NCBI GenBank assembly: GCA_021156105.1
Contig: JAJNBD010000010.1
Coordinates: 84,870-148,869 of the forward strand
Reading direction: 5' to 3'
Length of the DNA stretch: 64,000 bases
Source: Gammaproteobacteria bacterium
Lineage (GTDB): Bacteria; Pseudomonadota; Gammaproteobacteria; CAISUE01
This document shows positions 51,401 to 64,000 of this stretch, one piece after another (position 1 is the stretch's first letter; each line of letters begins with the position of its first letter). A program made the position numbers.

Positions 51401-54400
51401 AAAAAGGTGGCAAAGCCAAAAAGAAGACGGCACGCATTTACTGGCACACCAGGAAGAAATAAAAGGAAAATATGGTCTAGCGTAATAGGATGTCGCCTCA
51501 TCATCAATTATTTAGTGTAAAATAGCGTCATTCAAAAATTCTGATGGCGCTATGAAACCTAGTCTGTTAAAAAAGTTAGAACACCTGCATGAACGTTATG
51601 AAGAACTTGGCCATTTGCTAAGCTCCCCCGATGTCATTAATGATTCGAATAAATTCCGTGATTATTCAAAAGAATACTCTCAACTTGAACCCTTAGTCCA
51701 AAGTTACCGTGAATACCAAGCTTGTGCAAAAAACCTTGAGCAAGCTGAATATATGCTCGCTAATGAAACGGACAATGAATTAAAAGACCTCGCAGAAGAA
51801 GAAATGCTCGCATTAAAATCTCAGCGCGAAACTTTAGCTGAAGCACTACAGATTCATTTATTACCCCAAGACCCTAACGATAAAAGCAACGTCTTTCTCG
51901 AAATCCGCGCAGCGGCAGGTGGTGATGAATCCGCGATTTTTGCCGGCGATTTATTCCGCATGTATCAAAAATATGCGGATAAAAAACGCTGGGAAGTGGA
52001 AATTATTAGCGAAAGCGACGGCGAGCACGGCGGTTATAAAAGCATTGTGGCAAGAATCATTGGCCAAGGCGTGTATTCACATTTGAAATTTGAATCCGGT
52101 GCCCACCGCGTGCAACGCGTCCCTGAAACTGAAGCCCAAGGACGAGTACATACCTCAACTTGTACGGTGGCAATTTTACCAGAAGTTGAAGAAGTTGATT
52201 CTATCACCATTAACCCTGCTGACTTAAAAGTTGATACTTACCGCGCATCAGGCGCCGGTGGTCAGCACGTCAACAAAACCGATTCAGCTATTCGCATTAC
52301 TCACTTACCAACGGGCCTTGTGGTTGAATGCCAGGACGAGCGTTCCCAGCATAAAAACCGTGCTCGCGCGATGTCTTTGCTACAAGCACGTCTGTTAGAT
52401 GCAGAGCGCTCTAAGCAACAGCAAGAGCAAGCAGAAACTCGCCGTAACTTAGTTGGCACAGGCGACCGATCAGAGCGGATTCGCACCTATAATTTCCCGC
52501 AAAGTCGCTTAACGGACCACCGTATTAATCTTACGCTATACAAGCTTGATCAAATCATGGAAGGTGAATTAGATGAAGTCATTGGCCCATTAATCCGCGA
52601 ATATCAAGCGGATCAGCTAGCCGCTATGGGTAGTTAATATTTTACCTTCTTATTGTCGTTCCCGCGCAAGCGGGAATCCATTAGCTTTACACAAGCATTT
52701 TTAGTTGATAATGAATATGCCCAGCATTTCAGAGGCTTTACACGAAGCACAAAAAGCTTTATCCGCCTTAGATAGCGCAAAACTTGATACTGAAGTTCTT
52801 CTTGCCCATGTTTTAAAAAAAAATCGCAGTTATCTTCGAGCCTATAGCGACCAGGTAATAACAACATCTGAATTGCAACAGTTTCAACAACTGATCAAAA
52901 AGCGGACCAAAAAAACTCCCATTGCTTATTTAATTGGTGAAAAAGAATTTTGGTCATTAACATTTAAAATTACGCCCGATGTATTAATTCCAAGACCCGA
53001 AACCGAGCTATTAGTCGAGAAAGTTTTACAAGAGCATGGCGATAAAAAAGAATTGACTTTATTTGATTTGGGAACAGGCTCAGGCGCTATTGCCATTGCT
53101 TTAGCCCATGAAAAGCCTAGCTGGAAAATTATTGCCAGCGATATTAGCGAAAAAGCTTTAGCCATCGCCAAAGAAAACGCCTCTATCCTCGTAAAACCTA
53201 CCAATATCACTTTTATCCACTCCCATTGGCTTGACCAATTTCCGCAGGATCTTAAAGCTGATGTGATTGTCAGCAACCCACCCTATTTAGCCCAAAATGA
53301 TCCGCATTTGCATGATAGCGAAATCAGCCACGAACCCAAATTAGCGCTGATTGCAATGCCAGCTCCTGAGGTTCGCTTGGCACCTGGTACTGAAGCTTAT
53401 TATTGGATTGCACAGCAAGCTAAAGCTTTTCTCAACCCCGAAGGCAGGGTTTACTTTGAGCATGGTTGTGAGCAGGGAGAAGAAGTCAGAGAAATTTTTC
53501 GCCAGGCAGGCTACCAGGACATTTATTCAATAAATGATTGGGCTAATCTACCGCGAGTAACTGTGGGTTTAAGCAAAAATTAAGCTTGTAAAAATTATAA
53601 TTATTGTTTATAGTCAGTAGTTCATAATAAAAAGCCCAGGTTATAGTTATGCCTTATCAAATTAAGATTCGTCGAGACGCCAAAGCTTACGTAAATCCTA
53701 TTACATCAAGGAGTTTTACCAAGGATACGGATGTCGAAAAATTCATACAAGAATTACTGCAAGATTACTATGCCGAAGGCATCTACTTTTTAATTGAAAA
53801 CGCTGCCTTAACCCCCGTGCAATTAACGGAGAAACTTTTAAATTCTACCGAACTTAAAAAAGCTTTGCGCACAGAGATAGCCAGCACGCCTATTGATGAA
53901 AGCTTGCTTGCTGATGTCAAAACTTTCTACCTACGAAAAGAATTAATTCGTCTCCAGCAGGAAAGAAAACTATGCACTGAAATAGAAAGTATTCTGCAGC
54001 TGGCTGATGTCCCCTCACCAAACTATTCCTTACTGACTAAAAAGCTTGGCGAATTAAACTTAACAACACTACAAGATGTTGGTGAATTTTTCTTATGGGC
54101 TCAAACGATAGGAGCAAAGCAAGCATTTTCACAAGAAACGCTTAATCGAATTTATTTTCATCCTACGATCTTTGCCTCTGTAAAAAAACATTATCGGGCT
54201 CCAGCATTCGCTACAGGCGCTGGAGCTGCAGCGGCGCCAAAATCTTTTGATGAAGCATATGCGGAAGAACGCGAAAACAACCCCAGCTTTTTTACTGTAT
54301 TACAGCTTGTTGATTTCTTTGAACATCAATCTGGAGCAGAAAAACGTCTGCGCACTTTACTTGGGAAAGGACTTGAATCTATTGATAGTGCAAAACAAGC

Positions 54401-63400: not shown

Positions 63401-64000
63401 GCGCGATAAAGAATATCCAGAGAAATTAGATAAGCTCTGGGGCTCGCTTAAAGAAAAAGTTCTAGCTACCTCACAGCTTATGCAAGCAGCACCAGCTTCA
63501 AAGGCCGCTACTGCTGGAGACGTCATAAGGCGAAATGCGTTATAGCTTTACAATTTAAGCGTAGATAAAATTAAGACCTTTTGCGAAAAGGCCTTAATAA
63601 TATGCAGCTTCCTTTCTTAAGAGTCAAAGTCATCCCCAACTCAAAATACTACTATCTATAAGCAAAACAAGACAGCTTCACTCAGGTCTTCTGCTTTAAC
63701 TATATTTTTAGGGTTCATAGGTAGAACACATTGGTTTTTTATCGTATTGTGGCTTACTTAAGATTAAGAAACCATCAACATGGTAGTTTTTAGTTATCTT
63801 TTGCAGTTTACAGTGCGCCAGCAGCAAAGCTTGCTTACGTGAACAAACAGGTAAGCATCAATAAATTTATGCTAAAAATAGCAAGTTTTCTTAATCTATA
63901 TTTTTTAGTTATAAAATTAAAACTTGTTAGGCATTAAGAATAAACTGGCTATCTAGATTACTATCAAAATCAGCTGTTTCTAAAGGGCAAGCGATCTTTG

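Follow-up and report, generated by a model that had tools for sequence, protein, structure and literature searches.

A strain-level polymorphic, recombining cassette encoding the C-terminal tail of a giant protein and two convergent neighbour genes in an uncultured gammaproteobacterium

A stretch of 64,000 nucleotides (the window; positions 84,870 to 148,869 of contig JAJNBD010000010.1) from the metagenome-assembled genome (MAG) of a Gammaproteobacteria bacterium encodes two large proteins, of 1655 and 843 residues, that share a homologous C-terminal module. The distal part of this module, which we call the tail, belongs to a strain-level polymorphic, recombining cassette that runs on through a hairpin terminator into two genes of the opposite orientation, one for a small protein predicted to be exported and one for a membrane protein. 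The four proteins are annotated as hypothetical (K0S08_1914 to K0S08_1917), and the contig that encodes them is 775 kb long. A preliminary description, drawn from the sequence of the window, had seen here a duplicated pair of a large effector-like gene and a small convergent partner gene; it missed the cassette, which is the main feature of the locus.

The cassette and its junctions

The features that define the cassette in the window are listed below.

53649-58616, plus strand: gene for the giant 1655-aa protein (K0S08_1914), an open reading frame (ORF) identified with the MAG protein by identity; constant up to codon 1487
58112-60940, unstranded: polymorphic cassette, allele A, comprising tail codons 1488-1655, the terminator, the small gene, and the membrane gene with its upstream region
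58092-58111, plus strand: left junction in the giant gene, TGCATCGTTGCTTTGAAAAA, encoding C-I-V-A-L-K; the window and locus L002 are identical through the block and ~47% identical right after it
58641-58666, unstranded: hairpin terminator at the point where the giant and small genes converge; RNA folding energy -17.5 to -17.8 kcal/mol, T-run on the minus strand
58691-59215, minus strand: gene for the small 174-aa protein of type A (K0S08_1915), predicted to be Sec-exported, with a signal peptide, a beta-barrel core and a variable, Cys-containing C-terminus
59246-60652, minus strand: gene for the 468-aa membrane protein of type A (K0S08_1916), an ORF with hydrophobic segments
60946-60975, plus strand: promoter-like site of the 843-aa gene, TTGACA-18-AATAAT (11/12 match)
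61014-63545, plus strand: gene for the 843-aa protein (K0S08_1917), an ORF whose N-terminal 482 aa are unrelated to the giant
62991-63014, plus strand: junction block in the 843-aa gene, TGCATTGCTAATTTAAAAACCACG, encoding C-I-A-N-L-K-T-T; 24 nt identical to the junction of the L001 giant

Three metagenome contigs, retrieved by exact-protein look-up, served for comparison: L001 (7.5 kb, JGI sample 3300045996), L002 (9.2 kb, JGI sample 3300042904) and L003 (2.3 kb, from the same sample as L002). The cassette alleles in these loci and in the window fall into at least three types. Type A is carried by the window giant and by L003, type B by the 843-aa module of the window, with a form B' on the giant of L001, and type C by L002.

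Over prmC and codons 1-1487 of the giant gene, L002 is 99.75% identical to the window in nucleotide sequence (12 mismatches in 5.2 kb), and over the 843-aa gene it is 99.3% identical. Inside 58112-60940 the nucleotide identity is ~45%, and the encoded proteins are correspondingly divergent, at 26% amino acid identity for the giant tail, 47-55% for the small protein and 28% for the membrane protein. The cassette thus delimited is ~2.8 kb long, and its tail part encodes ~170-185 aa, the last 168 codons in the case of the giant. L003 matches window positions 57998-60288 at 99.9% (2 mismatches in 2291 nt), so that allele A has been recovered independently, and it includes 114 nt of the constant giant sequence that is common to L002. 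Alleles A and C therefore coexist on the same giant gene in sample 3300042904, on contigs that each span the left junction, which points to two cassette alleles of one gene within one community.

L001 belongs to a sister species. Its constant regions are about 76% identical to those of the window in nucleotide sequence and 57-80% in amino acid sequence, with 78% amino acid identity over the available part of the 843-aa N-terminus. The L001 giant gene resembles the window giant (65-81% nucleotide identity) up to the junction block, and from there on it resembles the 843-aa gene (77-88%). A type B cassette is thus found on the 843-aa gene in the window genome and on the giant gene in the sister species, and the C-I-x-x-L-K block (20-24 nt) is the left junction in at least two independent exchanges. 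This block falls where the disordered linker gives way to the first tail helix, and it is not homologous to any described PT motif. On the right, the junction coincides with the -35 box (TTGACA, 60946) of the best-matching promoter-like site ahead of the 843-aa gene; in the three-locus alignment, conservation resumes there at CTTATTGACAA.

We conclude that the cassette is exchanged by homologous recombination or gene conversion. The giant reading frame is kept across the junction in all three loci. Neither inverted nor direct repeats flank the cassette ends in the window, and site-specific recombination or a mobile element acting at these ends was rejected for this reason; an insertion resembling a mobile element in L001 (described below) is lineage-specific. 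A recent foreign origin was likewise rejected, since the GC content of the cassette (0.39-0.41) equals that of its flanks.

All of the comparison loci are short metagenome contigs, and chimeric assembly, or the mixing of contigs from two species, could in principle create such a pattern. Against this, L002 spans both junctions within a single 9.2-kb contig, and L003 and the MAG span the left junction of allele A independently of each other with only the 2 mismatches noted above. Moreover, a shared block of 20 nt would not suffice to lead a k-mer assembler astray on its two sides simultaneously, and an artefact would hardly preserve the giant reading frame through the junction in all three loci. 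We regard this explanation as very improbable indeed.

The duplicated three-gene unit

The four ORFs named in the preliminary description were all reproduced at the coordinates listed above, and the C-terminal homology that it proposed for the two large proteins is borne out. BLASTP with composition adjustment aligns residues 1351-1641 of the giant with residues 525-821 of the 843-aa protein (32% identity over 302 aa, E=4e-35) and finds a second collinear block upstream (35% over 77 aa, E=9e-8). Low-complexity coiled coil does not account for the similarity: the final ~175 aa of the two proteins match on their own (E~1e-27, tblastn), and the tails carry specific motifs that are not of coiled-coil type, namely RLxCIxxLKxT, EKLAL, KGD, KYxCLAxxKPY and ATGL. 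When profiles of the N-terminal parts (1228 and 482 aa) are compared by hhalign, the probability is 0.2%; as had been suggested, the N-termini are unrelated sequences joined to a common C-terminal module. This module consists of a helical or coiled-coil stalk ending in EYLQP, a non-conserved, Ala/Pro-rich linker of ~40 aa, and the tail. The stalk of the 843-aa protein is without ~75 aa that are present in the coiled coil of the giant.

57333-58091, plus strand: giant stalk, the part of the shared module that is specific to the paralogue and not polymorphic (alignments); 100% identical to L002
58092-58616, plus strand: tail domain of type A, 174 aa, predicted to be all-helical (tblastn E=3.6e-27 to the 843-aa tail)
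62460-62990, plus strand: stalk and linker of the 843-aa protein, the non-tail part of the shared module (alignments)
62991-63545, plus strand: tail domain of type B, 184 aa (alignments); 71% identical in amino acid sequence to the tail of the L001 giant
63570-63598, minus strand: hairpin terminator of module B, a 13-pair stem (folding), conserved with L001
63633-63897, minus strand: pseudogene of the small protein, type B (tblastn, blastn); 86% identical to the L001 small gene
63927-64000, minus strand: 3' end of a second membrane-protein gene, type B (in-frame translation; alignment to L001)
55623-56657, plus strand: possible metallophosphoesterase region of the giant (motifs read by eye; Pfam match below threshold)

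The decayed copy of the small gene, reported earlier near 63640-63858, is real and extends over 63633-63897. A tblastn search recovers three collinear pieces in three frames (E 1e-9 to 1e-11), corresponding to residues 1-36 (63894-63787, with two stops), 104-135 (63830-63735) and 143-163 (63727-63665) of the small protein. By blastn the remnant is 85% identical to the intact small gene over 61 nt, including an exact run of 19 nt, and the sequence KNYHVDGFLILSKPQYD is found in it. The ATG has been lost, stops have arisen in frame, and there is an internal deletion of ~207 nt (residues ~37-103) together with further indels; the homologous stop codon and the terminator are still in place. The remnant is 86% identical to the small gene of L001, compared with 79% to the intact copy in the window.

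The membrane gene had been taken to lie merely between the two modules. On the minus strand, however, 63927-64000 reads in frame KIACPLETADFDSNLDSQFILNA followed by a stop (PLETADFDSNLDSQFILNA and stop), matching the C-terminus of the L001 membrane protein, and blastn aligns L001 2655-2860 with window positions 63787-63985 (74%, E=1e-29). The membrane gene is thus part of what was duplicated, and the earlier idea of a duplicated two-gene module holds for the duplication but not for the count, which is three genes. The small gene is indeed convergent to the large gene, as was noted earlier, but its closer association is with the membrane gene: the two lie on one strand, the small gene begins 30 nt past the stop codon of the 468-aa gene and has a separate GAGGAG Shine-Dalgarno sequence, and both genes probably form one co-transcribed operon.

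Module B accordingly reads, in order, 843-aa gene, hairpin at 63570-63598, small-gene remnant, spacer and membrane-gene 3' end. The terminator, small-gene ends, spacer and membrane-gene 3' end of L001 are collinear with it at 76.5% nucleotide identity, and L001 and L002 share the gene order giant, small, membrane, 843-aa N-terminus. The repeated unit is therefore a large-protein C-terminal module followed by a terminator and, reading towards it from the other side, the membrane gene and then the small gene, present in two tandem copies. The two modules have the same orientation and lie 4.9 kb apart. Collinear, same-orientation similarity over more than one gene is what a segmental duplication predicts, and on this point the preliminary description, which proposed duplication and divergence with one small gene intact and one decayed, was right. 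BLAST detects no further copy of any component of the unit in the 64-kb window.

The presence of two same-orientation modules with a conserved junction block raises the possibility of programmed variation within a genome, in which donor cassettes (module B, possibly others) are gene-converted into the giant site in the manner of pilE/pilS, and alleles A and C in one sample are variants within one clone. That a B-type tail can sit on the giant is evident from L001, and the occurrence of A and C with identical flanks in a single sample would also fit. Module B, however, resides on a full-length, promoter-bearing and constrained gene, not on a silent fragment, and no C-type sequence is present anywhere in the 64-kb window. 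Conversion tracts of more than 2.8 kb, bounded on the left by only ~20 nt of homology, would be needed, and all three cassette genes are intact in each allele. We consider programmed variation distinctly unlikely.

When a profile of the module was run exhaustively with HMMER against 1.84 billion representative proteins, only the two window proteins were returned. Profiles of the module and the small protein found no relatives in representative genomes, nor did module and central-domain profiles in JGI metagenome contigs, collections that evidently do not hold the samples of L001-L003. Searches of the four proteins and their alleles against Pfam, NCBIfam, PADLOC and PHROGs, and by sequence and profile against PDB, assigned no family, the sole signal being a sub-threshold match to Metallophos. 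The small protein has only three other clusters at 90% identity among 5.8 billion sequences; a fourth, more distant homologue again has a convergent gene, 80 nt downstream. No literature on the sample or locus identifiers was found. To judge from these searches, the cassette is built from proteins without detectable relatives.

Divergence and possible function of the cassette

Between types A, B and C the tails are 22-36% identical in amino acid sequence, the membrane proteins 27-43% and the small proteins 47-75%. Tail A is 35% identical to tail B and 26% to tail C; membrane protein A is 40-43% identical to the L001 copy and 28% to that of L002. Nonsynonymous (dN) and synonymous (dS) divergence was estimated by the method of Nei and Gojobori. 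The background between the window and L002 has dS=0.005. Within the cassette, tails A and C differ with dN=0.87 and a saturated dS (>2.6), and the small proteins A and C with dN=0.47. Whatever its function, the cassette is a clean example of ancient allelic classes, with saturated dS inside it and a dS of 0.005 in the flanking background. Tail B of the window 843-aa protein and tail B' of the L001 giant differ with dS=0.62 and dN/dS 0.29; constant regions of the window and L001 give dS 0.78-1.5, and the B/B' split is no older than the species split. The dN/dS ratio lies between 0.09 and 0.36 for all segments, which argues that each of the alleles is functional and under constraint. Type A is nearer to B (or to its L001 form B') than either is to C, and this holds for all three genes.

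One alternative is that selection acts on the envelope operon, as a phage receptor, surface antigen or exclusion determinant, and that the tail diverges by linkage alone. The C-I-x-x-L-K junction would then be no more than the nearest patch conserved enough for homologous recombination, and the large proteins and the operon would be functionally unlinked. Several observations agree with this: the linker before the motif is non-conserved between the paralogues, so that the motif is the first available homology; the right junction too is simply the next conserved sequence; and the large genes and the operon are convergent and not co-transcribed. Envelope proteins are, in addition, common targets of diversifying or balancing selection. 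The divergence is not monotonic, however. The tail (dN 0.87, 26% amino acid identity) has diverged more than the small gene that intervenes (dN 0.47, 47-55%), and the two most divergent parts, tail and membrane protein, flank this better-conserved gene, which argues that diversification is directed at the tail as well and that the tail is no mere hitch-hiker. The trio has also been kept together through duplication onto a protein with an unrelated N-terminus and through relocation of type B between the 843-aa and giant loci, and the junction coincides with a domain boundary, the tail starting after the disordered linker. Divergence by linkage alone is, on balance, unlikely.

The tails themselves represent one homologous helical fold family. 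About nine helices are predicted, from alignments and from the secondary structure of a low-confidence AlphaFold2 model, in which long stalk helices are followed by a disordered stretch. Positions that are invariant across four tails are mostly hydrophobic-core residues, and no conserved set of catalytic-type residues was found across these four. A pore-forming, colicin-like tail was rejected because it lacks a hydrophobic helical hairpin. The giant as a whole has no signal peptide, no hydrophobic N-terminus and no transmembrane segment (no segment with a Kyte-Doolittle mean of at least 1.6).

Several segments of the membrane protein are moderately hydrophobic and rich in Gly and Ala; its CTPxKxGN loop is conserved, and its termini vary. 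Over 19-residue windows, the protein and its homologues P0013 and P0014 reach Kyte-Doolittle means of 1.4-2.0, and they have no signal peptide. From these profiles its topology, and its stable insertion in a bacterial inner membrane, are uncertain.

A Sec-type signal peptide is present at the N-terminus of every small-protein homologue, and the small protein is predicted to be exported to the envelope. This signal and the beta-barrel core speak against the roles of cytoplasmic chaperone or co-translocated metaeffector that had been proposed for it. It is also an unlikely candidate for the specific partner of the tail, because it is the least variable component of the cassette and because its type B gene is dead next to the intact, constrained tail B of the 843-aa protein.

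Our tentative preference is for an exchangeable specificity cassette, as suggested by the pattern of divergence and by predicted protein features. The tail would be a non-catalytic, allele-specific docking or recognition domain, and its cognate partner would be the co-inherited membrane protein, a better candidate than the small protein, which may act as a less specific periplasmic accessory. The cassette would then couple two different cargo proteins, the phosphatase-like giant and the helical 843-aa protein, to a matched envelope component, and frequency-dependent selection of the sort that acts on polymorphic toxin-immunity or self-recognition systems might maintain its diversity. The type A and B' copies of the small protein are 74-75% identical, which makes it plausible that the two copies were redundant after the duplication, so that one could decay while tail B stayed constrained.

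Several points weigh against a specificity cassette of this kind. Physically adjacent genes move together whether or not their products interact, and alleles A and C in one sample could also be two copies in one genome. The congruence of the three genes rests on 3-4 loci and has about a 1 in 9 chance of arising at random, which is weak statistics. The second membrane gene is seen as a 3' end only, running past window position 64000. No trafficking or secretion, toxin or immunity family was recognised in Pfam, NCBIfam, PADLOC, PHROGs or PDB, and the AlphaFold model of the 843-aa C-terminal module (pLDDT 41) is unusable for a fold search. Finally, the partner genes are convergent to the large genes, unlike the same-operon downstream genes of known toxin-immunity pairs.

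A different interpretation, close to that of the preliminary description, sees the large proteins as paralogous effectors of a Dot/Icm-like type IV secretion system (T4SS), the shared module as a translocation-signal, localisation or partner-binding domain, and the small protein as a metaeffector, chaperone or immunity protein; the membrane protein, for its part, might be translocated as a membrane effector and serve as anchor for the tails at the host vacuole. The region has a host-associated flavour, with an R-SNARE gene 2 kb upstream and many family-less ORFs of 400-600 aa among housekeeping genes, and the two large proteins are orphans restricted to the lineage, cytoplasmic and of helical or coiled-coil structure, with C-termini rich in small and polar residues. 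The segments of the membrane protein are only moderately hydrophobic (Kyte-Doolittle 1.4-1.8). Moderate hydrophobicity of this kind has been described for translocated membrane effectors. Genes for metaeffectors often adjoin those of their targets (PMC5199130, PMC7911563). The small protein, however, has a Sec signal peptide and is predicted to be co-transcribed with the membrane gene, and its gene is dead beside the intact 843-aa tail. No T4SS gene, effector family or recognised signal was detected in the window, and a translocation or localisation domain offers no obvious reason for 65-75% amino acid divergence between strains that are 99.7% identical. We therefore think the effector interpretation unlikely as well.

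The named genes of the window are those of an ordinary chromosome (Tex, MsrAB, a MATE transporter, adenosine deaminase, Slt, QueG, FadD, ArgS, Psd, PrfA and PrmC), and many family-less ORFs are scattered among these housekeeping genes. Six of them, of 286-606 aa, lie at 1168-2988, 16355-17725, 19160-20431, 24745-26418, 28635-30275 and 30871-31731; none has a credible Pfam or NCBIfam match, and two of the six have only NCBIfam matches far below threshold. No secretion-system gene, whether of a T4SS, a type VI secretion system (T6SS) or any other kind, was found within the 64-kb window. Directly upstream of prfA, and 2 kb upstream of the giant gene, a 173-aa ORF (50964-51485, plus strand) matches Pfam Synaptobrevin PF00957 (E=4.4e-13, 49 bits against a cutoff of 26.4); its product, named 'Synaptobrevin' by NCBI (MCD6048264.1), has a eukaryote-like R-SNARE motif and a C-terminal CCLGGC, and a near-identical copy (P0011) occurs on a JGI contig. 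It is adjoined upstream by a 93-aa helical ORF (50429-50710, plus strand) that has no family match, with weak sub-threshold matches only. The SNARE gene and the orphan ORFs fit a host-associated, Legionellales-like lifestyle without proving it, and the high density of orphan genes is in the same way compatible with, and no proof of, an effector-rich host-associated genome. A palindrome, GTCGTTCCCGCGCAAGCGGGAATCC, lies at 52655-52680 between prfA and prmC. At ~870-1200, L001 has an insertion of ~340 bp in the intergenic region between the membrane and 843-aa genes, with related terminal inverted repeats, GTCATTCCCGCGAAAG and CTTTCGCGGGAATGAC; palindrome and insertion look like a miniature inverted-repeat transposable element (MITE) or a repetitive extragenic palindromic (REP) type element of this lineage.

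Comparison with known systems

The central region of the giant is a possible metallophosphoesterase of the purple acid phosphatase type, an assignment that is not established. Five motif blocks, read by eye, occur in the order GDLG (659-662), GDECY (686-690), GNHE (725-728), SHH (839-841) and HDH (1001-1003), and they match the GDxG, GDxxY, GNHE, xxHH and HxH blocks of calcineurin-like phosphoesterases (PF00149) in both order and spacing. The blocks are invariant between the window and L001 giants, and the region is the best-conserved part of the giant (80% amino acid identity to L001, dN/dS 0.15). Profile positions 33-159 of Pfam Metallophos PF00149 align with the motif-bearing stretch. Unlike established members, both orthologues score below the gathering threshold (E=0.054, 14.4 bits in the window; E=0.021, 15.7 bits in L001; cutoff 21.5), no PDB sequence matches the region even by profile at E<=10, and it contains long insertions. 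If the assignment were true, the giant would be an enzyme with long insertions.

Legionella effector-metaeffector pairs and paralogue families (PMC5199130, PMC7911563) resemble the locus in comprising large orphan helical proteins, here from a probably host-associated gammaproteobacterium, in fusing different N-terminal regions to a common module, and in making a functionally linked neighbour gene plausible. They differ in that the neighbour here carries a signal peptide of the Sec type and is part of another operon, and in that no Dot/Icm gene is present in the window. The cassette polymorphism sets the locus further apart. To our knowledge, no effector-metaeffector pair shows strain-level cassette polymorphism with a fixed junction.

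The resemblance to polymorphic toxins, such as CdiA-CT/CdiI of contact-dependent inhibition (CDI), Rhs and MafB (Zhang et al. 2012, PMC3482391), is one of cassette logic. As in those systems, large multidomain proteins are nearly identical except in their C-terminal-most domain, a short conserved motif marks the point of exchange, in the manner of the VENN or PT domains, and the variable tip is inherited with one or more adjacent partner genes. A second module lies nearby, with signs of recombination between modules and a decayed partner copy. Unlike in polymorphic toxins, no N-terminal trafficking domain, repeats, releasing peptidase or toxin domain was found in the giant or the 843-aa protein, and where those systems draw on unrelated toxin folds, the tails are all homologous versions of one helical domain. 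A terminator lies between the large gene and its convergent partner genes, which make up an operon of their own; in place of a small immunity protein of the cytoplasm, they encode a membrane protein of 450-470 aa and a protein predicted to be Sec-exported. Nor is the second module a 5'-truncated orphan: it forms the end of a complete, different gene, that of the 843-aa protein, which has a promoter of its own, and no standalone orphan tail cassettes are present in the 64-kb window. The downstream genes co-vary with the tail, yet they are convergent and terminator-separated, and the small gene is dead beside tail B. Membership of the polymorphic toxins fails on the trafficking domain, on the toxin domain and, within the window, on orphan cassettes; the arrangement of the partner genes speaks partly for it and partly against it.

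A parallel for the pairing of tail and membrane protein is provided by IdsD and IdsE of Proteus mirabilis (PMC4471559), in which a large or exported protein and an integral membrane protein have co-varying, strain-specific regions; at the present locus, binding of the two would be inferred from the covariation. In the Ids pair the co-varying regions determine allele-restricted pairing, and the variation occurs, as here, within one homologous fold and not by the swapping of unrelated domains. The tails (22-36% identity between types) and membrane proteins (27-43%) co-vary in this Ids-like way. There is no sequence relationship, and the Ids genes, unlike those described here, form one co-oriented operon linked to a T6SS, which has no counterpart in the window.

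It is conceivable, though we hold it rather unlikely, that the locus represents an undescribed allele-restricted recognition system, in which a swappable helical tail of ~170 aa, set off by the C-I-x-x-L-K recombination block, would match different cargo proteins, the giant and the 843-aa protein, to a cognate, co-inherited polytopic membrane protein. Such a system would be either a new type of toxin-immunity or kin discrimination, acting through an unknown export route, or a translocated anchor-ligand pair on a host vacuole, caught up in an arms race. The locus offers a precise recombination junction and three natural allele sets (A, B and C) for the comparison of cognate with non-cognate combinations. 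Our best reading by analogy is that the cassette follows the logic of polymorphic toxin and self-recognition systems, with membership of either not established. If this is true, it would define a new set of protein families that use a constant body with a swappable C-terminal tip and a matched partner, and that differ from the known systems in their occurrence in an uncultured SNARE-encoding lineage, in having a membrane protein as partner, in the convergent partner operon, and in the diversification of a single tip fold.

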